Source: an uncultured Eubacteriales bacterium (lineage in GTDB: Bacteria > Bacillota > Clostridia > Oscillospirales > CAG-272). Taken from it: DNA of 58,108 bases. The notes below the pieces were generated by a model that was given only the letters and a program-made list of their open reading frames with translations, was not told the DNA's origin and searched no databases. Each line of letters begins with the position of its first letter. The stretch's first letter is position 1. Location: NCBI GenBank assembly GCA_963614875.1, contig CAVEFC010000004.1:1-58108 (forward strand). The letters are read 5' to 3'. Below are positions 7,560 through 58,108 of the stretch, in pieces. The translations under genes were made by a program, and so were the position numbers.

Positions 7560-10500
7560 TTATCTCACGTCAAACGGGGTAAACTCGTCTTCGTAAGGAT
7601 CTCCCGGCCCGAACCATGGCGGTGTGTCCTCCGAAACATACGGTTCCTCTGCCGTAAACCGCTCAAAATCGCCGTATTCGGACAGAGACTTCACCGCTTC
7701 GTCCACCATATTGTTGTAATATGTACGGTCAATATCTTCCTGCTTATTGAGCTGTTTGACCACTTCGGACTCAAGCCAGCGGAATCCCTTGGAACCAGTC
7801 GCTGCGGCATAGCCCTTCTCCTTGGTTTTCTTGTTCTCCGTTTCACGGAGCAGCACTCCCCCACCGCAGCCGGGCTTAATCGGGCAGAATTGACCGACCT
7901 TTCCGATGAAGTGATAGCTGTGACCATCGACAATGATTTTCTCAAGTTTTTCGAATTCCTGGCACTCCTTGCTCATCGGGTCTTCCAACTTGGAAATATC
8001 ACTAAGCTCCTTAAGCAGTTTGGCATACTGCTTTTCATAATCGCTCACATCCGGCAAGTCTTCATTCATATCGAGATACAGAGCCGAAGTCACGGATTTA
8101 GTTTCGCACATATCCTCAAACTCAATATTTTCTTTACTGAACAGCGTCTTGAATACATACGGAATCTGAAACTGTGTTCCGGTTGCAGTCCAATCGTAAG
8201 GGTGCTTTTTGTTTTCTTTGCAAATATCTTTTGCAGAGTCAATATATTCTTTTCCGTATAAGCCATAACACTTCTCCACGGTCGCATACCTTGCAATATA
8301 AACCGCGTCGTTGACCAGACACATTCTGTCATATGTGGCTTCGTGCTCGAAATTGTAGCCGTACAGTTTACCGTACTCGGTCACAAACCGAATAATTTCC
8401 GGAGTAGCGTCCGGAATTTTGATAGAGTCCGTCTTGATGTGCGCAACGGTAAATCCTTTGTCCTGAACTGCGTGTTTTAGATTGACCATAAACAAAGCCC
8501 CGCGCTTGGCAACAATATTATCTTTATTGCGCGTATCTCTGAACGGGTTCTCGAATCCCGCCGAAGTCAGTCCGTAAACCGAGTTGATTGCGATTTTCAG
8601 AGCCTGAGCCAGATCCGCCGCCGCATTTTCATCGGTCAGGTATTTTGCCAACGCACCGCCCAGCATCTTTTTCGCTTTATCAAAATCTTTATGCTTGATC
8701 GCGATACGAGCCTGAAGAAGTTCGTCAAACCGTTTTGTATATTCCGGTCCGAACAATTCTTCCGCCACAATGCTGCTCGGGTGCATGGATGCAATATCCA
8801 GCAGGGCAATATTACTGTACATACCGGGTTCGGCATATACATATCCCCCCTCGCCGACTTCCTCGCCGCGATAGACCGATTTTCCGTTTTCAAAAATATA
8901 ACCCGGAAAAATCGGACGATGATTTTTGTCAAACGCACAGAACTCGTCCGTATCCTCCAGACTCATGGCAAACGGCAGATCGGCATTCGGGTCAAATATC
9001 TGACTCTCATCCCCCATAAATCGATAATTGAACTGATCCTGTGGCTTTCGGTTGTTGCCGAATATAATTTTTGTAGTCAGGGAATTTGTCGTATCGTTTA
9101 CCGACATACCTGCCACGTCCGCCAGAATCTGACGAGCCGTAAAGTCAGCTTTTCGGGAATTGAAAGTTGCTTCGGTTGCGATAACGTCATTATCGCAGTA
9201 TTCGGCAACCTCAGTCCAACGTTCTTCCGGGACGGGCTTGTCCCAAGGAAGCCCGAGCTCCTGATGATGAATACCCAGCTCAATCTCAAATTTTTTAAGA
9301 GATTGTTTTTTGCTGGAGAAGTCATACACGTCCGTATAAGACGCGTTATAAGCTTCTCCGAAGAAGCAATTTGCGCTTCCGTTGATAATCCTTATCGAAA
9401 GATTAAAAAGCTGTTCGTTCGTATACCCCATCAATCTGGCGTAAAGAATGTGGTTATCATACCGGCGGCAGTTGAATCCCACAAGATTTGCCCGCATAAC
9501 GTTTTCCAGCTGTGCCGGCGTCGGATTGATCATACGGACTACGGGTTTATGGTTTGTCTGCAATTCACGAATATAATCAGACCAGCTGTCAAAGTCCGAT
9601 GGGGAATAATCCTCCGCATACTTCCAGTTCACAAGAAACAGGTTGGGAAATACCTCAACGTCATAAAACACAAATTTAGTGTCGTCATTCTGTATACCTG
9701 CGGATCTGTCGGCAGACTTGAACTGCATTTTATTTACAAGCTTGATACAGTAGTCCGCATGATGCGTACTGCTTGCAGCAAACGCCAGTACGGCGTTGCG
9801 CATATCGGTCACATCATACTTGAGATCGCTTGCATAAGCGTCCTCAAGAATTTTATAAATGAAGTCGATACTTGGCTTAGTAGCTGGGTGGTATTCTTTA
9901 TTAAGGTTTCGCTTGATTTTTGTCCTAAGCCCTTTCTCGCTCTTCACCCCTTCAAAATTTATCACAGGTTTTTCTCCTTTCAGTGGTAAACCCGAGTTGA
10001 TCGTTGCAATAGGTAAATCATTGCATTTTGTCAGCTTGCGTCGAAGCGAGCTTTTTCCGGTAAAGACCTTCACTTCGATATGATCGTCGTAAACCCGGCT
10101 GAGCTTTGACACGTCTCCGGCATAAATATAATGCAGATGAATACCCTGACCGCTTTTGCTGAGCTCCGCATAGGTCGGCGGCCATTTACTTGCTTCTTTG
10201 AGATTCAGCTCAAACGATTTATTACCGTCCTTATCCTGAATATCAAAGTCAATAACAATATGATTTTCCGGAACTTTGACATAGTGCAATCTTGACGTGG
10301 TAAGCTCGCCCAGCTTCGTCGTGACATCGTCCCATTTGACGGTGGGGGTCTCTTTTTCCGAAGCATACTGGGCGGGGCAATCGGCGCATTCTCGGTCAAA
10401 AATGGATTTTTGTTTTAAGAACTCAATCGTCTTATGGTCGGGCTCTGCTTTTTCGGATAAAGTCTGACCTTCAAACTTTTCTGTTCGGAAACCGGTGTAA

Positions 10501-11768
10501 TAACTGCGGACGCGAGTCCCGTCATCAAGATTGAACCTCTCTTTATAATCCCGGAAATAGTTTTTAAGTTCCTCCTTGAAAATTCTTTGTGAGAACGGGA
10601 AGGTAACTTTTGCCTCGTCGCAATAGGTTTTATACATCTCCCATGAGGCTTTGAGAGTTGTCCCGTCTTCTTTCTTAAAGACGTGGTAAGAATCAACAAT
10701 GAAGTTGTAGAAATCATTAGACGCACCGAGCATTGTAATGGGAATATAATCGTCATACCGACCGGGATTCTCCAGATAAACCTCCTGACAATGATATGCA
10801 ATGGCACCCAGCTCAAACTCAATCTGCTTTGTCACCGTCTTGTATTCCCTCGGACTCAGTTTATTTCCGGAAGGGGACACGTCAATCAGTCGTCTTATAA
10901 GACCGGATTTAGCGTCCGTAATCTTTACTGGTTTATTTGTGCCCATAAACAGAAAGCACTTAAAACGGTTTGCATAGGTCGATTTGAACTTTTCGTTTAC
11001 CGTCATAAGCTCATGAGAAACAAGGCTGTTCAAACGGGTATTGTCTTCAATCCGAGACAGATCGCCATCATGCTGAATCGCAACAAGGGGGTTTGTCTTG
11101 AACGCCTCCAGTGCAAAGGAGTTGCTTGAAGAGCCCAGTGCCTTGGCGTCGAAAACCGAGTAATAGCCATCAAAAAGCTGTTGCACAATATTGAGCACCG
11201 TCGATTTACCCGTGCCTGCCGCGCCGTACAGAACCATAAATTTCTGCAATTTCTTAGACTCTCCACATACTATCGAACCGATAGCCCATTCGATTTTTGT
11301 CCGTTCCTCTTCGGAATATAATGTGGACATAAGCCTGTCATATGCGTCGATGGTTCCTTGCTCCAGCGGATAGTTCAGCCTTTTGCTTGCATAGTCTTTT
11401 TTGTTTGTCGGCATATTTGAAAATATCAATTTCTCATCCAGCATATGAAACGAATCCCGCATCTGCTTCTGGCAGTATTTATGCCACGAATCGATCATTC
11501 CGGATTCCGAATCCCACATATGCAGAACTTTGATGCCTGCGTCGAAATGCGTGCGGTTTTCTTCCGCATACCTGTCGAGTTCTCTGTCGATAAGCTGGAG
11601 TGCGTCCTGCTCATCCGTAGACCACAGACCGCGTTCTTCCAGCCATATAGCATAAAAATCACCGCCTCTGATCATCAGGTCGGAGCTTTTCTTAATGATA
11701 AACTTCGGATAGATTTCTATTACGCCACGCTTTGTACTACGGGTTGAAATCATTAAAAAGTCGATCAT
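7560..11768 (-). CDS. fusion replicase: SF3 (D5/P4-type) helicase + prim-pol + family B DNA polymerase (1402 aa)
   Basis: Walker [10 protein letters not shown] (aa 182-190). Prim-pol motifs VIDFD (505-509) and GIHLHY (542-547). Exo I FYDVE (701-705), Exo II FNCRRYD, Exo III YCDND (857-861). Pol motif A DIASMHPS (991-998), motif [10 protein letters not shown] (1058-1066), motif C KTDS (1112-1115). Confidence 0.85.
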
Positions 11769-51248: not shown

Positions 51249-51286
51249 GGCGATACTTGGTTTTCACAACTAGGTATCGCCTTTTT
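51249..51286 (+). terminator. orphan hairpin plus T-run upstream of tnpV
   Basis: GGCGATAC...GTATCGCC (51249-51256 / 51274-51281) followed by TTTTT. No protein gene lies upstream of it. Confidence 0.4.
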
Positions 51287-51329
51287 CTATCTTTAATGAT
51301 TTTTCATACTATGATTGGAGGAACAAATA

Positions 51330-51680
51330 ATGCAGGAACTTACTTATATTCGTTGTGGTGATTACTATATTCCCGATATTTGCTTGCCGGAAGAAAACAG
51401 GCCTATTGGTCGGTGGGGTCGGATGCACAGAGATTATATCAAGGAGCATAACCCCATCCGTTTCAACGATCTGTGTCTTAGCGGCGAACTGTGGACTTAT
51501 CTGGCTAACTTGAACGAACAGGCACAGAGCCGCCTTGAACTTATCATCGAGCAGAAGAAAGCTGCTGGGGGCGTGACAGAGGACATGAAAGCAGCTAACC
51601 AAATAGCATGGGTAGGAGCTATGATCAGCATCCGCAATCGTGCAGAGGAAATTGTGAAAAACGAACTGATTTATAATTGA
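51330..51680 (+). CDS. tnpV: TnpV-family transposon-encoded protein
   Basis: ATG at 51330 with a GGAGGAAC RBS. The pattern MQELTYIRCGDYYIPDI.LPEE..PIG.WG......YIKEH....F..L...G.L..YL..LNEQA...L......GVTE..KA..Q..WV......IRN.AEEIV..ELIY matches my memory of the TnpV family. Confidence 0.75.
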   Translation: MQELTYIRCGDYYIPDICLPEENRPIGRWGRMHRDYIKEHNPIRFNDLCLSGELWTYLANLNEQAQSRLELIIEQKKAAGGVTEDMKAANQIAWVGAMISIRNRAEEIVKNELIYN

Positions 51681-51687
51681 TACCGCA

Positions 51688-51730
51688 GAGGAGCTTGTGT
51701 TCAAGGTGGCACAAGCCCCTCTTTTTCTTT
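51688..51730 (+). terminator. intrinsic terminator after tnpV
   Basis: GAGGAGCTTGTG / CACAAGCCCCTC stem followed by TTTTTCTTTC. Confidence 0.65.
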
Positions 51731-51764: not shown

Positions 51765-51793
51765 TTGAAAAATTCATGATTTCGTGATATAAT
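51765..51793 (+). promoter_or_regulatory. near-consensus sigma-A promoter of the R-M operon (TTGAAA-17-TATAAT)
   Basis: TTGAAA at 51765-51770, a 17-nt spacer, TATAAT at 51788-51793. Confidence 0.7.
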
Positions 51794-51820: not shown

Positions 51821-52048
51821 ATGGCTGTAACCTATAAAAAGTTATTTCACCTGCTGATCGACAAAGGCATGACCAATGCCGAATTGATGGAGAAAGCAGG
51901 CTTTAGCGCCAATATTATTACCCGCATCAAGCGTGACAATTACATTTCTCTCAACAGTATTGAGAGGATTTGCAAAACTTTCAACTGCGGCGTTGACGAT
52001 ATTCTGGATTTTATACCTGATATAAAGGAGAACGAAAACAATGATTGA
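51821..52048 (+). CDS. XRE-family HTH protein (possible controller of the R-M operon)
   Basis: 75 aa. HTH GMTNAELMEKAGFSANIITRIKRDN. AGGAGGG RBS. Overlaps the hsdM start by 8 nt. Confidence 0.8.
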   Translation: MAVTYKKLFHLLIDKGMTNAELMEKAGFSANIITRIKRDNYISLNSIERICKTFNCGVDDILDFIPDIKENENND

Positions 52049-53606
52049 TACAAAGAAAGAACAAGAGCGTGACGAGCTGCACCGTGCGATATGGGCAATC
52101 GCTGATGAGCTCCGTGGTGCCGTGGACGGCTGGGATTTCAAGAACTATGTCCTTGGCACGATGTTTTACAGATATATCTCCGAAAATCTGACCAATTACA
52201 TTAACTCCGGTGAGCAGGATGCCGGTAATACTGATTTTGATTATGCAAAAATGTCCGATGCCGAAGCAGAGGAAGCCCGTGAGGGGCTTGTTGAAGAAAA
52301 AGGCTTTTTTATTCTGCCGTCTGAACTGTTCTGCAATGTCAACCGCAGAGTAGACAATGACGAAAATCTGAATGAGACCTTGGAGCGTGTGTTCAACCAT
52401 ATCGGAGCATCCGCAAAAGGTTCTTCCTCTGAAAGCAGCTTCGCCGGACTGTTTGATGATTTTGATGTGAACAGCAACAAACTTGGCTCTACCGTTGCAA
52501 AGAGAAATGAACGCCTTGCAAAACTTCTGCATGGTGTAGCCGATATGAACCTTGGCGATGTAAAAGACCATGACATTGATGCCTTTGGCGATGCCTACGA
52601 ATATCTGATGACCATGTACGCATCGGGAGCAGGAAAATCCGGCGGTGAGTTCTTTACCCCTGCTGATGTTTCCGAATTGCTCACCAGACTCGGCACGGTG
52701 GACAAGACTGAAATCAATAAAGTCTATGACCCTGCGTGTGGCTCCGGTTCTCTGCTTCTGAAAGCAGAAAAGGTTCTTGGCAAGGATGCCGTCAGAAATG
52801 GTTTCTACGGACAGGAAATCAACATCACTACTTACAACCTCTGCCGTATCAATATGTTCCTGCATGATGTTGGCTTTGATAAGTTTGACATTGCCTGTGA
52901 GGACACACTGATCGCACCGCAGCATTGGGACGATGAACCGTTTGAGCTGATCGTTTCCAACCCTCCCTATTCCCTCAAGTGGGCTGGCGATGATAACCCT
53001 CTGCTGATTAACGATCCTCGTTTTTCTCCGGCTGGCGTTCTCGCACCGAAGTCTAAAGCCGACCTTGCCTTTATCATGCACTCCCTTTCGTGGCTGGCAA
53101 CAGGCGGCACAGCAGCGATCGTTTGCTTCCCCTGTATTATGTACCGTGGCGGTGCAGAGCAGAAAATCAGAAAGTATCTGATTGATAACAACTATATCGA
53201 CTGCATCATCCAGTTGCCGAGCAATCTGTTCTTTGGAACGTCTATTGCGACCTGTATTATGGTTCTGAAGAAAGGCAAACCTGACAACAAGACCCTGTTT
53301 ATTGACGCTTCCGGCGAGTGCATCAAAGTCACGAACAACAATAAGCTGACTCAGGAAAACATTGACCGTATTGTTTCCACCTTTGCCGCCCGTGCCGAGG
53401 AGCCGCATTTCTCTCATCTGGCAAGTTATGAGGAAATCGAGGGTAATGATTATAACCTCTCCGTTTCCACCTATGTGGAAGCCGAGGATACCAGAGAGAA
53501 AATCGACATTGTAAAGCTCAATGCTGAAATTGAGGAAATTGTCGCCCGTGAACAGGTTCTCCGTGACGAAATAGCGAAGATCATCGCAGAAATCGAGGTG
53601 GAATGA
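52041..53606 (+). CDS. hsdM: type I restriction-modification system methyltransferase subunit
   Basis: 521 aa. N-terminal HsdM domain, FFTPADV, motif I VYDPACGSGSLL and motif IV VSNPPYSLKW. Confidence 0.93.
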   Translation: MIDTKKEQERDELHRAIWAIADELRGAVDGWDFKNYVLGTMFYRYISENLTNYINSGEQDAGNTDFDYAKMSDAEAEEAREGLVEEKGFFILPSELFCNVNRRVDNDENLNETLERVFNHIGASAKGSSSESSFAGLFDDFDVNSNKLGSTVAKRNERLAKLLHGVADMNLGDVKDHDIDAFGDAYEYLMTMYASGAGKSGGEFFTPADVSELLTRLGTVDKTEINKVYDPACGSGSLLLKAEKVLGKDAVRNGFYGQEINITTYNLCRINMFLHDVGFDKFDIACEDTLIAPQHWDDEPFELIVSNPPYSLKWAGDDNPLLINDPRFSPAGVLAPKSKADLAFIMHSLSWLATGGTAAIVCFPCIMYRGGAEQKIRKYLIDNNYIDCIIQLPSNLFFGTSIATCIMVLKKGKPDNKTLFIDASGECIKVTNNNKLTQENIDRIVSTFAARAEEPHFSHLASYEEIEGNDYNLSVSTYVEAEDTREKIDIVKLNAEIEEIVAREQVLRDEIAKIIAEIEVE

Positions 53607-54682
53607 TGAAGAAGGACAAGCGTGAAATCAGCATCGTTCGTTCTTCCGCTGCGGAATATCTGACATTTGTTGCCTCCACAGGTGCAGACGAAAAAAGCAT
53701 AGAGATGCGTTACGAGGACGAAAACATCTGGCTGACGCAAAAAATGATGGCTGCTTTGTATGATGTGGATGTACGAACCATCAACGACCATATTAAAAAA
53801 ATATATTCTGATTCAGAATTGGAACAATCGGCAACTATCCGAAAATATCGGATAGTTCAAACGGAAGGTTCCCGTGAGGTTGCCCGTGAAGTAAACCATT
53901 ATAATCTGCAAATGATTATTTCGGTTGGCTTCAAGGTGAATAACGAGCGAGCGGTGCAGTTCAGAAAATGGGCCAACCGTATTGTAAAAGATTACACCAT
54001 TCAAGGCTGGGTTATGGATGATGACCGTCTGAAAAATGGCGGAACAGTGCTGACAAAAGAATATTTTGAAAAGCAGCTGGAGAAAATCCGTGAGATTCGT
54101 CTTTCGGAGCGAAAATTCTACCAGAAAATCACCGATATTTATGCCACAGCTCTGGACTATGACCCTTCCGCAGCGGCTACAAAACGCTTTTTTGCAGCGG
54201 TGCAAAATAAATTGCACTACAGTGTTCATGGGCAAACAGCAGCCGAGGTTATCTACACCCGAGCAGATGCAGAAAAGGAACACATGGGGCTTACCACATG
54301 GGACGGCTCGCCAAAAAGTAAAATTCATGCCTACGATGTTGTGGTAGCGAAAAACTACTTGACCGAAAAGGAGCTTTCCCAGCTGGGACGCATTGTTTCG
54401 GCATATCTGGATCTGGCAGAAGCACAGGCAGAGCGGCACATTCCGATGACAATGGCAGATTGGGAGAAGCGGCTCGATGGCTTTCTCACCGTGTGGGACA
54501 GAGAGGTTTTGCAGGATGCTGGAAAGGTATCCGCGGAGCTTGCCAAGGCTCACGCCCTGAGCGAGTTTGAAAAATATCGCATCGTGCAGGATCAGCTGTA
54601 TCAAAGCGACTTCGACAGGATGTTGCTGGAAGCAGATTCACATACAAAAGAGCTGCCGGAAGCGAAGGATGGCGGTGAATAA
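53603..54682 (+). CDS. rhuM: RhuM-family protein
   Basis: 359 aa. The N-terminal region with IVQTEGSREVAREVNHYNLQMIISVGFKVNNERAVQFRKWAN and the rest match the RhuM family as I recall it. Its ATG overlaps the hsdM stop. Confidence 0.8.
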   Translation: MMKKDKREISIVRSSAAEYLTFVASTGADEKSIEMRYEDENIWLTQKMMAALYDVDVRTINDHIKKIYSDSELEQSATIRKYRIVQTEGSREVAREVNHYNLQMIISVGFKVNNERAVQFRKWANRIVKDYTIQGWVMDDDRLKNGGTVLTKEYFEKQLEKIREIRLSERKFYQKITDIYATALDYDPSAAATKRFFAAVQNKLHYSVHGQTAAEVIYTRADAEKEHMGLTTWDGSPKSKIHAYDVVVAKNYLTEKELSQLGRIVSAYLDLAEAQAERHIPMTMADWEKRLDGFLTVWDREVLQDAGKVSAELAKAHALSEFEKYRIVQDQLYQSDFDRMLLEADSHTKELPEAKDGGE

Positions 54683-54881: not shown

Positions 54882-55478
54882 GTGAGTAAGAATCTAATCA
54901 GTGTTGATTGTGTTTTGACCTGCGGATGCGGCGCTTCCATACCAGTATGGTTTTTGATAGAGAGCAAAAATGATATAACAGGTCAAGCTCCTACTATACG
55001 CATATTGAAGAAAAGTGTAAAACTATCCGATGTGGTTCGGATCAACGACAATCGCTATGGGGAGTTTACTCCGCTATTAGACAAAGCTATGCAGGCATAT
55101 ACCGACGGATTAGGAGCAGGTGCAGTTGTATATCTGAGAAAAATTTTCGAAAAAATCACGGTGAAAGCAGCGAAAGCAGTCAATATCGAGTATGCTCAAT
55201 ATAAAGGCGGAAGCCCAAAGAACTTTTCTGATCTGCTAAAAAAGGTGGATGAAAAATGTTCTATAATCCCAAAAGAATTCTCCGCAAACGGGTATAAACT
55301 GTTTCGAGAATTGAGCGGTGTCGTCCATGGAGAATATGATGAAGAAGCAGGATTGAAGAATTTCGAAGCCCTACATAGGCTTGTAATAGGAATCCTTGAA
55401 AATGTAATCAATCATAAAGAGTTATTGGATGCTATTACTGTGCTTGGTTGGAACGAAGAAAGAGGTGAAGATAAATGA
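54882..55478 (+). CDS. Zn-ribbon / DUF4145-like protein; 5' end apparently disrupted (in-frame coding sequence continues upstream to 54744)
   Basis: The tracked GTG start has no RBS. The upstream in-frame sequence encodes ...FCVSCGDIRTFW... An ATG at 54743 sits in a frame offset by one nucleotide, ahead of an A7 run (54755-54761). The C-terminal part (YLRKIFEKI....FRELSGVVHGEYDE) resembles DUF4145, from memory. Confidence 0.6.
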   Translation: MSKNLISVDCVLTCGCGASIPVWFLIESKNDITGQAPTIRILKKSVKLSDVVRINDNRYGEFTPLLDKAMQAYTDGLGAGAVVYLRKIFEKITVKAAKAVNIEYAQYKGGSPKNFSDLLKKVDEKCSIIPKEFSANGYKLFRELSGVVHGEYDEEAGLKNFEALHRLVIGILENVINHKELLDAITVLGWNEERGEDK

Positions 55479-56596
55479 GCCGATTGGATGAACTGATTCA
55501 GCAATACTGCCCAGATGGGGTGGAGTATAGAAAACTTGAAGATTGCTGTACAGTTCTTGATAAAAAAAGGAAACCCGTTACAAAAGCGGCAAGAGAAGCA
55601 GGCGAATATCCGTATTATGGTGCAAACGGCATTCAGGATTATGTTTCAGATTATATTTTTGATGGCACGTTTGTTCTTGTCGGAGAAGATGGAAGCGTAA
55701 TTACAAAAGCAGGAACGCCAGTTGTAACATGGGCAGAGGGGAAAATATGGGTGAACAATCACGCTCATATCATTGAAGGAACTGACGGTGTCCTCCTTCG
55801 ATATCTGTTTCATTATATACAGACTATCGATGTAACCCCTTTAATTCATGGCAATATACCCAAGTTGACAGGTGGAGATTTTAGAGCATTACAGATCCCC
55901 GTCCCCCCTCTGCCTGTGCAGAGTGAAATTGTCCGGATTCTGGACAATTTCACGGAGCTTACAGCGGAACTTACAGCGAGGAAGAAACAGTATGAATTTT
56001 ATCGGGATAAGCTGCTGACCTTCGGCGATGTCCGAGGGGGGGCGACAAGTGATGTTGCGTGGAGGACGCTCGCTGAAATTGCAGAAATTTCAACCGGTTC
56101 AAGCAACACGGATGATGCGGTTGAGGGTGGTTGCTACACGTTTTTTGTCCGTTCTCAGCAGCCTCTTGCTAAGAATGAATACGAGTACGACGAAGAAGCA
56201 ATTATCACAGCAGGAGATGGAGTAGGCGTTGGAAAGGTATTTCACTATATCAATGGGAAATATGCTCTCCATCAAAGAGCCTATAGAATTCATCCGGCAA
56301 CAGATGCGCTTTTTGGTAAGTATCTGTATCACTATTTTGTTGCTAATTTTCCGAAATACATTGCACAGCAGATGTTTCAAGGTTCAGTACCGTCGATCCG
56401 CAGACCGATGCTCAACAAGTTCCAGGTTGCAATTCCGTCACTTGATGTTCAAAAACGGCTTGCTGAGGTTCTCGACAACTTCGATGCCATCTGCTCTGAT
56501 CTGAAAATCGGTCTGCCTGCCGAGATTGAAGCAAGACAAAAGCAGTATGAGTTCTATCGTGATAAGTTGCTGACATTTGAGAAAGCTGGAGTGTAA
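55475..56596 (+). CDS. hsdS: type I restriction-modification system specificity subunit
   Basis: 373 aa. Two target-recognition domains are separated by the conserved helices RKKQYEFYRDKLLTF and RQKQYEFYRDKLLTF. Confidence 0.92.
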   Translation: MSRLDELIQQYCPDGVEYRKLEDCCTVLDKKRKPVTKAAREAGEYPYYGANGIQDYVSDYIFDGTFVLVGEDGSVITKAGTPVVTWAEGKIWVNNHAHIIEGTDGVLLRYLFHYIQTIDVTPLIHGNIPKLTGGDFRALQIPVPPLPVQSEIVRILDNFTELTAELTARKKQYEFYRDKLLTFGDVRGGATSDVAWRTLAEIAEISTGSSNTDDAVEGGCYTFFVRSQQPLAKNEYEYDEEAIITAGDGVGVGKVFHYINGKYALHQRAYRIHPATDALFGKYLYHYFVANFPKYIAQQMFQGSVPSIRRPMLNKFQVAIPSLDVQKRLAEVLDNFDAICSDLKIGLPAEIEARQKQYEFYRDKLLTFEKAGV

Positions 56597-56610
56597 CTGG
56601 GGGATAAATA

Positions 56611-57567
56611 ATGGGGCGAGTGAATTATAGCGTGACCACATCGCTTTTGATGCGAGTCGGTAACTCAAAGGTAATCCAAAAATGTTACGATGAAAAAACG
56701 ATTCAGTTTGGCTGTGCGGCGAATTGGCTTGACTATGCACTGAAATGCAAAAATCAAGCTGTTGGTGACTATTATGAATGCGTTTTTGCTCATATACCAA
56801 AAGGCGATGCAAGGGTTAATTCCATTACCGATATTCATGGCAAGCCGATGGGCGATCATTTGCTGATTCTGGAAAACCAGCGTGATGGGTCTTCCTTGCT
56901 TCGCCTGATTCCAACGATTCTTATGCCGACAATTTGTTTCTTTTCCTTCAATGTTCAAAGGATACGGAAACAAATGGATAAAAAAGGAGAAGCCACCAAA
57001 TGGTTTGCTTTCGACTTGGATGCATATCGGGAAGATATGGAATATCAAGACGATGCGAGTTTCTTGTTTATCTCTGACCCCGTATCCTTTTTTCAAGACT
57101 TAAAAGAATCGATTCCTATTTCGGTTGAAAAGAATAAGAAAAATCTCACATCGAGAAGATTCTATTCAGGGTTTAATCCGCAAGAGCCGTTTATTTTTCG
57201 TGATGTTGATTACCACCATTATACTGATGACCGTCCTTTCTTTGATTATCAGGACAACCGAGAAGAGCTGTTTTGGAAATTACCAAAATACGAACAACAG
57301 TCAGAACTAAGAATCGCTATCTCTCACTTGAACTTTGTACAAACTTATGACCCTTCATTGGAATATGATTATAACAAAAATAAGCTTGATGTATTTCTTC
57401 CTCACTTTCAAGAGTATGCAATGATTGTCCCAGCGAATAAAGCACATTCATTGTATTTCGGTGGATTTGACACGGATTGTCATACAAATGATTTTGCGGT
57501 ACTTAAACTGACAATGAAGGATATTCAAGACAACATAAAAGTTAATAGTGGGAAACTAATCATTTAG
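56611..57567 (+). CDS. uncharacterised 318-aa protein between hsdS and hsdR
   Basis: Gaps of 14 nt to hsdS and 11 nt to hsdR. No Walker A, HTH or nuclease signature that I can recognise. Locally AT-rich. Confidence 0.7.
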   Translation: MGRVNYSVTTSLLMRVGNSKVIQKCYDEKTIQFGCAANWLDYALKCKNQAVGDYYECVFAHIPKGDARVNSITDIHGKPMGDHLLILENQRDGSSLLRLIPTILMPTICFFSFNVQRIRKQMDKKGEATKWFAFDLDAYREDMEYQDDASFLFISDPVSFFQDLKESIPISVEKNKKNLTSRRFYSGFNPQEPFIFRDVDYHHYTDDRPFFDYQDNREELFWKLPKYEQQSELRIAISHLNFVQTYDPSLEYDYNKNKLDVFLPHFQEYAMIVPANKAHSLYFGGFDTDCHTNDFAVLKLTMKDIQDNIKVNSGKLII

Positions 57568-57578
57568 GAGGTCAAGCC

Positions 57579-58108
57579 ATGTCCTTTTTCAATATAGTCG
57601 CACAGACAAGAGAAAATACGGTGGTGACGGAGTATGAGCCTGTTTCCAAACGCAGCGACAGCTTTCAGAGCGAAGCCGCTCTTGAAAAGGAGTTCATCCG
57701 GCTGCTGACCACGCAAGGGTACGAGTATCTTACCCTCCATGACGAAAACAGTCTGATCACCAACCTCAGACGGCAGTTGGAGCTTTTGAACGATTACACC
57801 TTTACCGACAGCGAGTGGAAGCGTTTCTTCACGGAAACGCTTGCCAACGCCAACGAAGGCATCGTTGAGAAAAGCCGTACCATCCAGACTGACCATGTAA
57901 AGGTACTCCGCAGGGATGATGGACCTTCCAAGAATATTCAGCTCATAGACAAAAAGAACATTCACAATAACCGCTTACAGGTTATCAACCAGTATGAGGA
58001 AACCGAGGGCAAGCATGACACTCGCTATGATGTGTCTATCCTTGTCAACGGTCTGCCCCTTGTCCATGTGGAACTGAAACGCCGTGGCGTTGCAATCCGT
58101 GAAGCCTT
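57579..58108 (+). CDS. hsdR: type I restriction enzyme R subunit, N-terminal fragment (continues beyond the window)
   Basis: ATG at 57579 after an AGGAGG RBS, open to the window end. The translation MSFFNIVAQTRENTVVTEYEP...SEAALEKEFIRLL...YDVSILVNGLPLVHVELKRRGVAIREA is the typical HsdR N-terminal nuclease region. Confidence 0.88.
   Translation, partial: MSFFNIVAQTRENTVVTEYEPVSKRSDSFQSEAALEKEFIRLLTTQGYEYLTLHDENSLITNLRRQLELLNDYTFTDSEWKRFFTETLANANEGIVEKSRTIQTDHVKVLRRDDGPSKNIQLIDKKNIHNNRLQVINQYEETEGKHDTRYDVSILVNGLPLVHVELKRRGVAIREA

Follow-up and report, generated by a model that had tools for sequence, protein, structure and literature searches.

Genes nested within the operons of Hma, bacteriophage exclusion (BREX), defence island system associated with restriction-modification (DISARM) and type I restriction-modification (R-M) systems are mostly defence genes, and 145 models of such phage-defence candidates (PDCs) are held in PADLOC (bioRxiv 10.1101/2024.01.29.577857). 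That accessory genes nested in R-M and BREX operons can yield new immune mechanisms is proven by PrrC, BrxU, TgvAB and the series of Hma-embedded candidates (HECs) and PDCs. Among single-gene systems, DUF2971 and AbiGi are treated as related in the literature, and DUF2971 pairs with Abi_C (PMC12522546). For Aristaios, a lactococcal single-gene DUF2971 system, an abortive-infection phenotype was shown experimentally (PMC11381338, PMC13064643). Here we describe a gene, called X below, from a 58,108-nucleotide stretch of DNA (the window; positions 1 to 58,108 of contig CAVEFC010000004.1, assembly GCA_963614875.1) of an uncultured Eubacteriales bacterium. X is an open reading frame (ORF) at positions 56611-57567 of the + strand that runs from ATG to TAG, encodes 318 residues, and is flanked by hsdS and hsdR in a type I R-M operon. 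Its family is rare, unnamed and without a match in domain libraries, and is recurrently embedded in defence operons. We lean, by a little, towards the reading that X is an embedded, autonomous or semi-autonomous anti-phage effector of the abortive-infection type with a distant relation to DUF2971 and AbiGi.

X begins 14 nucleotides downstream of hsdS and ends 11 nucleotides upstream of hsdR, with all three genes on the + strand. The ORF coordinates agree exactly with the position, strand and gaps given in an earlier reading of this DNA made from the letters alone (the sequence-only reading). The type I specificity subunit gene hsdS spans positions 55475-56596 (Pfam Methylase_S 1e-44; PADLOC Specificity_I 2.6e-101), and the spacer that follows (56597-56610) carries a GGGGGA ribosome-binding site and is so short that it leaves no space for a promoter or terminator. 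The second spacer (57568-57578) carries an AGGAGG ribosome-binding site and leads into hsdR, the restriction/motor subunit gene, whose ATG is at 57579 and which is truncated by the window end, such that its 5' part is seen at 57579-58108 (Pfam HSDR_N 7e-33; PADLOC REase_I 2e-48). With a guanine-cytosine (GC) content of 38.2%, X is indeed richer in AT than hsdS (44.5%) and the hsdR fragment (49.1%), as had been noticed earlier; the corresponding values for hsdM and the whole window are 47.5% and 46.2%. Co-transcription of X with the type I genes, claimed in the same reading, is almost certain given the shared strand, the short gaps and the missing terminator. No + strand terminator was found from a promoter-like site at 51765-51793 to the window end, which fits a single transcript of the order HTH-hsdM-RhuM-198aa-hsdS-X-hsdR.

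X is a genuine gene under purifying selection. Between X and its 97.7%-identical copy at another locus (L019; loci are numbered L and individual homologues P), 12 codons differ synonymously and 10 non-synonymously, corresponding to a ratio of non-synonymous to synonymous rates (dN/dS) of ~0.26, and homologues of 50-56% identity use different codons at 52-57% of the conserved residues. Among 1.84 billion representatives, homologues form 31 close clusters and, at E <= 1e-3, a total of 126 clusters. They come mostly from uncultured Oscillospiraceae, Clostridiales and Bacteroidales of gut and rumen, with Bacillus and Paenibacillus as further hosts. Rarity and a distribution mostly limited to uncultured anaerobes probably explain why the family has stayed uncatalogued. 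A compact subfamily, A4, is homologous to the X family (hhalign probability 99.8%, E 5e-28) and has the same set of conserved residues. When a 70-sequence family profile was run on a word-indexed collection, the only additions were P0146 and P0156. On mobile DNA, no relatives of X were found by tblastn among 72,556 plasmids and 50,697 phages, and none was found in IMG/VR by pattern scan. In two type I operons the main copy is preceded by another, highly divergent paralogue (L031:5173-5928 and L036:7614-8324); these paralogues match the family hidden Markov model at E 3e-11 and 6e-6, respectively.

Evidence for a role in defence comes from the genomic contexts of the family. To gather loci, exact proteins were looked up and genome and metagenome collections were scanned with patterns; neighbouring genes were labelled using phmmer references, Pfam and PADLOC. 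About 40 loci were sampled, and 33 are non-redundant with informative flanks. The family member is in a defence context at 29 of these 33 and is nested in a modification-based immune operon at 22, so the homologues are not distributed at random with respect to defence loci, a pattern that would have spoken against the proposal in the sequence-only reading. In 17 loci (the window, L019, L001, L007, L010, L012, L020-22, L025, L028, L030-32, L035, L036 and L042), it belongs to a type I R-M operon, with hsdS or another embedded gene on its upstream side and hsdR downstream. The HsdR proteins of the homologous loci carry EcoR124_C, which marks the system as type IC-like, as is EcoprrI. Another four loci (L003, L034, L037 and L041) are split type IIG/ISP-like R-M systems in which the member sits between the methyltransferase and helicase-nuclease genes. 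Its flanks there are an Eco57I/MmeI-type methyltransferase and a 965-973-residue T5orf172+ResIII protein (two ORFs in L037), of which the first matches a single PADLOC REase_MTase_IIG model over its C-terminal part (863-1359) and the second the same model over its N-terminal part (152-800). One locus (L053), representing a cluster of 96 sequences, places the member inside a type 1 BREX system, 4 nucleotides upstream of pglZ. At the embedded type I and split IIG/ISP loci, the flanking genes are on the same strand and the gaps are mostly between -4 and +45 nucleotides.

At a further seven loci, the family member stands beside other defence genes: a PDC-S28 helicase, DUF3800 and Gabija (L011); a PDC-S28-like helicase, HEPN_AbiU2 and SIR2_2 (L014); AbiGi plus HNH_5 (L016 and L017); Gabija in Tn7-like cargo of a Paenibacillus isolate (L050); DUF2971 in an integrase island (L052); and Abi_C on an ArdC element (L070). 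X therefore has the profile on which guilt by embedding is based: it is an uncharacterised gene, it shares the strand of its host operons, its family is found in more than five independent systems, and it matches no mobility or housekeeping family. The last point had been raised earlier as a possible objection, namely that X might turn out to have a transposition or housekeeping function; such a match was looked for and X gave none.

Conservation was scored in an alignment of 93 full-length members with 19-97% identity to X, and about 13 residues proved to be near-invariant. Y201 and R234 are present in 93/93 members, K223, Q230 and E232 in 92/93, P106 in 91/93, E56 in 90/93, D53 (preceded by G52, itself among the near-invariant residues), C109 and F33 in 89/93, C35 in 88/93, R or K at position 15 of the first beta-strand in 87/93, and Y227 in 86/93. 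Conserved charged, aromatic and cysteine residues of this kind in a soluble alpha/beta protein indicate an enzyme or a specific ligand-binding site and not a scaffold, and the conservation pattern suggests that X is an enzyme. The protein is predicted to be soluble, compact, alpha/beta and enzyme-like. Its putative active site would combine R/K15 on strand 1, D53/E56, C35, C109, Y201 and the K223-x3-Y227-x2-Q230-x-E232-x-R234 strand. AlphaFold2 models were confident for both X (predicted local distance difference test, pLDDT, 85.5; predicted template modelling score, pTM, 0.85) and P0132, a compact 243-residue homologue (pLDDT 91.3, pTM 0.88).

Library and fold searches left the family without a name. 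X matched nothing in Pfam, PADLOC v2, NCBIfam or PHROGs, and 70 diverse relatives gave no match in them at meaningful thresholds. The PADLOC run proposed earlier gave no match for X and labelled its neighbours as hsd genes and PDC-S05. The earlier statement that X is unrelated to PrrC agrees with the absence of a PADLOC PrrC match and of a Walker A motif: X had no PADLOC match at E <= 0.1, none of the 70 members matched PrrC models at E <= 0.05, and the Walker A pattern [GA]xxxxGK[ST] is absent from X and present in 1% of the 93 members, with no P-loop match in Pfam. The further claim that X contains no recognisable signature held for the libraries and for Walker A, but not to the letter, because X contains two Rx4-6H strings (R197..H202/203 and R234..H239). 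Their histidines are unconserved, and they are therefore not a HEPN motif. HNH, GIY-YIG and CxxC motifs were all lacking in X.

Comparisons with solved structures were equally silent. The family profile had zero matches among PDB sequences. The sole PDB sequence match of X itself was to designed SAKe propellers (E 2e-4, residues 195-280) and was judged spurious. Foldseek, which the sequence-only reading had proposed to run on a model of X, retrieved no fold match: nothing was found at E <= 1e-3 for the X model against PDB and BFVD or for the P0132 model against PDB. Below this level, matches of X to DarT (7omv/7omx; TM score 0.18-0.27) and Tpt1 were at noise level and absent for the P0132 model, for which a class II aminoacyl-tRNA synthetase appeared, also at noise level. 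A membrane protein was considered and rejected as well; the maximum hydropathy of X is 1.62, falls over predicted core beta-strands, and does not correspond to a transmembrane segment.

The one lead that emerged from these searches is DUF2971. Three distant members approach the Pfam DUF2971 model (E 0.03-0.09, with a fourth at 3.3) at the model end, on the K..Y..Q.E.R block, and one of the 70 members matches PADLOC PDC-S31 at E 6e-4, the best PADLOC match of any member. PDC-S31 is the PADLOC family that matches the genuine BREX-embedded DUF2971 protein of L053. For profile-profile comparison, DUF2971 profiles were built from annotated plasmid genes. Using hhalign, the X family scored 33-34 against DUF2971 with a 14-sequence local alignment (E 5-7e-4, probability 27-31%) and 25-27 with a 12-sequence alignment (E 6e-3 to 1e-2, probability 4-7%). 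The null scores were all lower: column shuffles gave 12-14 +/- 2.5, the reversed alignment gave 21-23, and unrelated single proteins gave at most 22 after dropping the top scorer (26.6), which proved to be AbiGi. The positive control, DUF2971 against AbiGi, reached a score of only 27.4. Scores of the X family against AbiGi were only 15-22, single-sequence DUF2971 templates aligned over the motif block only or not at all, and the relatives of P0132 are without Pfam annotation and thus provide no bridge to DUF2971.

Motif order and context point in the same direction. The X family, DUF2971 and AbiGi have a common order of blocks, beginning with H, R or K on strand 1 and continuing with P-x-x-C-F and [EQ]-x-E-x-R. 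Of the DUF2971 hallmarks, the K..Y..Q.E.R block has a clear counterpart in X (K223..Y227..Q230.E232.R234), D53xxE56 and C109-F are possible counterparts, and YHYT and W..Y are absent. Context parallels with DUF2971 consist of the pairing with Abi_C at L070 and the embedding in BREX beside a DUF2971 gene at L053. Taken together, these likenesses make true homology between the X family and the DUF2971/AbiGi group somewhat more probable than its opposite, judging from sequence comparison. The plasmid genes used as DUF2971 controls have telling neighbours of their own: one (L060, Agrobacterium pAt) is beside QatD of a Qat system, another (L061, Yersinia plasmid) is beside a restriction endonuclease, and a third (L058, E. 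albertii plasmid) is beside an 'abortive infection family protein'. Such neighbours fit a role of DUF2971 itself in defence.

The DUF2971/AbiGi group is predicted to be ADP-ribosyltransferase (ART)-like, and its member Aristaios blocks phage transcription. In X, candidate residues for an ART triad can be named by sequence as R/K15 (87/93), C109..S112, Y201 (93/93) and Q230-x-E232 (92/93). ART-type chemistry in X is a tentative proposal to which we give clearly less than even chances; if correct, X would carry out NAD-dependent ADP-ribosylation. The silence of the fold searches has precedents, in that AbiGi is likewise silent in Foldseek (PMC13064643) and the ART fold of AbiGi and DUF2971 likewise escapes structure comparison (PMC13064643, PMC12522546).

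Several observations weigh against an autonomous effector related to DUF2971 and AbiGi. At the Pfam gathering score for DUF2971 (22 bits), X has no match and the best member reaches 14.6 bits (E 0.09). The hhalign result depends on the alignment used, and its probability of 4-31% is under accepted thresholds. The DUF2971 profile reached no solved ART in the PDB, only spurious GABA-receptor matches, and the ART assignment of the group hence draws entirely on the bioinformatic literature. Neither an ART nor any other fold was matched in PDB/BFVD by the two confident models at E <= 1e-3. With regard to context, four of the 33 loci (L015, L040, L045/47 and L071) have no defence neighbour, and at two of them the member stands behind an XRE-type regulator. 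Finally, the close clade of X (>= 47% identity) almost always adjoins a gene for a superfamily 2 (SF2) motor, which could mean dependence on the motor and not autonomy.

The question of autonomy was addressed by comparing the divergence of X with that of its neighbours. For 12 type I loci, pairwise identities range from 0.31 to 1.00 for X and from 0.49 to 0.82 for HsdR, and the two are uncorrelated (Mantel r 0.08; 1500/5000 permutations at or above the observed value). Co-evolution of X with HsdR is rejected on this result. The extremes are instructive. The X proteins of L031 and L032 are 100% identical while their HsdR proteins are 81% identical, and the HsdR proteins of L019 and L035 are 80% identical while their X proteins are 38% identical. 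The window and L019 are 97.7% identical in the DNA of X and 91% identical at the start of hsdR, and the 3' halves of their hsdS genes are unrelated; at L019 a full-length 1037-residue HsdR homologue is encoded downstream of the 97%-identical X. The patterns of the window/L019 and L031/L032 pairs indicate recent recombination or exchange around X in type I operons. The lack of co-divergence together with the low GC content shows that X is exchanged as a module within one type IC-like R-M lineage and does not co-evolve with a fixed partner, and the uncorrelated identities speak for an autonomous cassette and against a latent effector that depends obligately on binding to HsdR. In the scenario we favour, X would have entered a type IC-like R-M operon as an AT-rich cassette; co-transcribed with that operon, it would form a second layer against phages that escape restriction. 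Its relatives recur within type I R-M, split type IIG/ISP-like R-M and BREX, and also next to Abi genes.

Among the alternatives, a guardian of the PrrC kind survives best, although we consider it unlikely. X would then lie latent on the type I R-M complex or another motor complex and be freed by Ocr, ArdA or Stp-like proteins, a mechanism already put forward in the sequence-only reading. The slot was correctly recognised there, as X is located between hsdS and hsdR like prrC and in a type IC-like operon (PMC12707154). The arrangement of the close clade fits too: in type I and in split IIG/ISP R-M, two unrelated architectures, its members immediately precede the motor/nuclease gene, and otherwise they lie 3' of the PDC-S28 helicase gene, usually with short gaps that suggest translational coupling. 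A single gene with no obvious antitoxin would also fit control by a host complex. However, the latent mechanism itself gained no direct support. Family members occur without an R-M partner (upstream of pglZ in BREX, beside AbiGi or Abi_C, and free-standing behind XRE regulators), X and HsdR do not co-diverge (Mantel r 0.08), and an identical X is found beside HsdR proteins that are 81% identical. X also lacks PrrC similarity and an NTPase domain, and PrrC, by contrast, is reportedly almost exclusively embedded in type I systems (bioRxiv 10.1101/2024.01.29.577857). A bolder variant, which we regard as improbable, is that X represents a new guardian class, a latent ART-like toxin of new fold that docks on SF2-motor restriction complexes and BREX. 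If true, it would fire upon anti-restriction attack and constitute a chemically distinct analogue of PrrC across unrelated immune machines (HsdR, split ISP, PDC-S28 and BREX).

X might instead serve ATP-dependent restriction and BREX-type machines as an accessory or regulatory subunit that is not lethal, with a part in assembly, translocation, restriction alleviation or target range. Such a subunit would be expected to keep a tight, recurrent slot, as is seen between the modification/specificity genes and the motor genes of type I and split IIG systems and ahead of pglZ in BREX, and to be co-transcribed with the restriction genes, with no + strand terminator in between. Most type I systems work without such a subunit, however, and this counts against the idea. 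Moreover, the evolution of X is much faster than that of HsdR and decoupled from that protein (31-56% versus 49-82% identity for most pairs), family members are found away from any such machine, and the invariant polar cluster looks catalytic and not scaffold-like. The chances of an accessory subunit are in our estimate poor.

Poorer still are those of selfish or neutral cargo, or of a decaying insert hitch-hiking in exchanged R-M operons. Low GC content, cassette-like exchange, TnpV and recombinases close by at several loci and the few loci without defence neighbours are all features that cargo would share. On the other side are the purifying selection and the ORFs that remain intact over 19-97% identity, the conservation of the putative active site, the absence of a transposase or integrase family match, the absence of homologues from the sequenced plasmids, phages and IMG/VR contigs searched, and the same-strand embedding in three unrelated immune architectures. 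Least probable is a nuclease, modification-dependent (type IV-like) or otherwise, that would complement type I restriction by attacking modified phage DNA like TgvAB, BrxU or RloF, because although this is the commonest documented role of type I- and BREX-embedded genes (PMC11411939; bioRxiv 10.1101/2024.01.29.577857) and X has conserved acidic and basic residues, the X family shows no Pfam match, conserved motif or fold of the DUF262/DUF1524, HNH, PD-(D/E)xK, GIY-YIG or Mrr type, Foldseek retrieved no nuclease fold for either confident model, and the lone PD..ExK-like string of X is unconserved and without a fold match.

An embedded effector would not be alone in this operon, which holds three embedded genes in all; the sequence-only reading had missed the other two. 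The most upstream gene of the transcript is a 75-residue Cro/C1-type helix-turn-helix (HTH) gene (51821-52048; HTH_26 5e-17), which probably controls or represses the entire R-M-plus-cargo operon and overlaps the start of hsdM by 8 nucleotides. The methyltransferase gene hsdM (52041-53606; N6_Mtase 7e-112, HsdM_N 7e-19, MTase_I 9e-129) is followed, with a 4-nucleotide overlap at its stop, by a RhuM-family gene situated between hsdM and hsdS that corresponds to the PADLOC candidate PDC-S05 (53603-54682; Virulence_RhuM 3e-111; PDC-S05 4e-153). Its presence indicates that the operon has gathered embedded cargo. The remaining gene is a 198-residue ORF with a GTG start (54882-55478; GC 39.5%) that overlaps the start of hsdS by 4 nucleotides. 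It has no match in Pfam, PADLOC or NCBIfam and only noise in PHROGs, occupies the same position in a sister contig (L068), and may be another uncatalogued embedded defence candidate. All of these genes are on the + strand, as is the putative operon promoter, a sigma70-like TTGAAA-17-TATAAT sequence with an extended -10 element at 51765-51793 (11/12 matches, the best in the region). Directly upstream of this promoter is a TnpV gene (51315-51680; region 51249-51716) flanked by two terminator-like hairpins, and in the sister contig the island comes after the housekeeping genes for SerRS, PheRS and an M20 peptidase. The TnpV gene and the sister-contig arrangement suggest a mobile-element boundary upstream of the operon. 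TnpV likewise flanks the split type IIG loci with family member P0031 (L003-L006).

Some of the other loci deserve a fuller description. In L003 (7826-13776), a small MmeI_Mtase-like protein and a 509-residue Eco57I-type methyltransferase match the C-terminal part of PDLC03626, the 963-residue T5orf172 (GIY-YIG-like)+ResIII protein matches its N-terminal part, and the apparently split system resides on a relaxase/integrase element. The BREX system of L053 (1-14452) has four embedded genes, in this order: a DUF2971/PDC-S31 gene between brxC and pglX, a gene for a 584-residue protein with a weak DUF4365 match, one for an SLFN_AlbA_2+HATPase_c_4 protein with a winged HTH domain, and the X-family member before pglZ. 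In two metagenome-assembled genomes of Bacteroidales (L016:10007-12524 and L017:~10001-11673), AbiGi comes directly after the family member (Pfam 4e-36; PADLOC 2e-55) and AbiGii is absent. An HNH_5 protein follows AbiGi in L016, where the cluster is at the edge of a polysaccharide-biosynthesis cluster. The family member, AbiGi and HNH_5 may make up a distinct three-gene system.

Should X protect against phage, it would be a new catalogue entry, chiefly for anaerobes of gut and rumen that are under-sampled, and give an experimental footing to a distant branch of DUF2971/AbiGi. It would also be a second natural case, after PrrC, of effectors that possibly monitor the health of restriction complexes. 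The family is embedded very cleanly in three modification-based systems that are unrelated to one another, and it lacks a structural relative among solved and viral proteins. Because X is compact and single-gene and offers clear residues to mutate, these ideas are cheap to test. The earlier description of X as a previously undescribed defence component is accurate for the family, which is absent from the catalogues, but less so for the concept, which is established through PrrC and guilt by embedding. The X family is accordingly new to the catalogues, possibly as a new branch of DUF2971/AbiGi, and it follows an embedding principle that is already established.

Among known systems, X shares its setting with the PDCs and HECs of Payne et al., which are likewise uncharacterised same-strand genes nested in type I R-M, BREX and other systems; X differs in that it is not among the 145 PDCs or the HECs (no PADLOC v2 match). 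PrrC of the E. coli type IC system EcoprrI is, like X, a single accessory gene between hsdS and hsdR on the same strand, and a second-line role is plausible for X too. The two proteins share no sequence or domain similarity, however, X being devoid of the ABC-type NTPase and Walker A of PrrC, and the X family extends beyond type I loci. AbiGi (PF10899, lactococcal AbiG) shares with X a P-x-x-C-F strand and an E-x-E-W-R-type motif. In the two Bacteroidales loci, however, it is a separate protein encoded immediately downstream of the family member, and neither X nor the 70 members match AbiGi in Pfam or PADLOC. AbiGi acts together with AbiGii, whereas AbiGii is absent here. Compared with DUF2971 (PF11185; Aristaios, PDC-S31), the X family has invariant features of its own (FxC...GDxxEC, two cysteines, and Q replacing the first E) and X is without the YHYT, ND and W..Y hallmarks. 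DUF2971 is nonetheless, though below threshold, the best match of the family in Pfam, PADLOC and hhalign alike. Both are single genes for proteins of about 250-320 residues, both occur within BREX and R-M operons and form pairs with Abi_C, and both follow the same order of motifs: H, R or K on strand 1, D-x-x-E, the P/x-x-x-C-F strand, V-x-Y, and K-x3-[FY]-x2-[EQ]-x-E-x-R.

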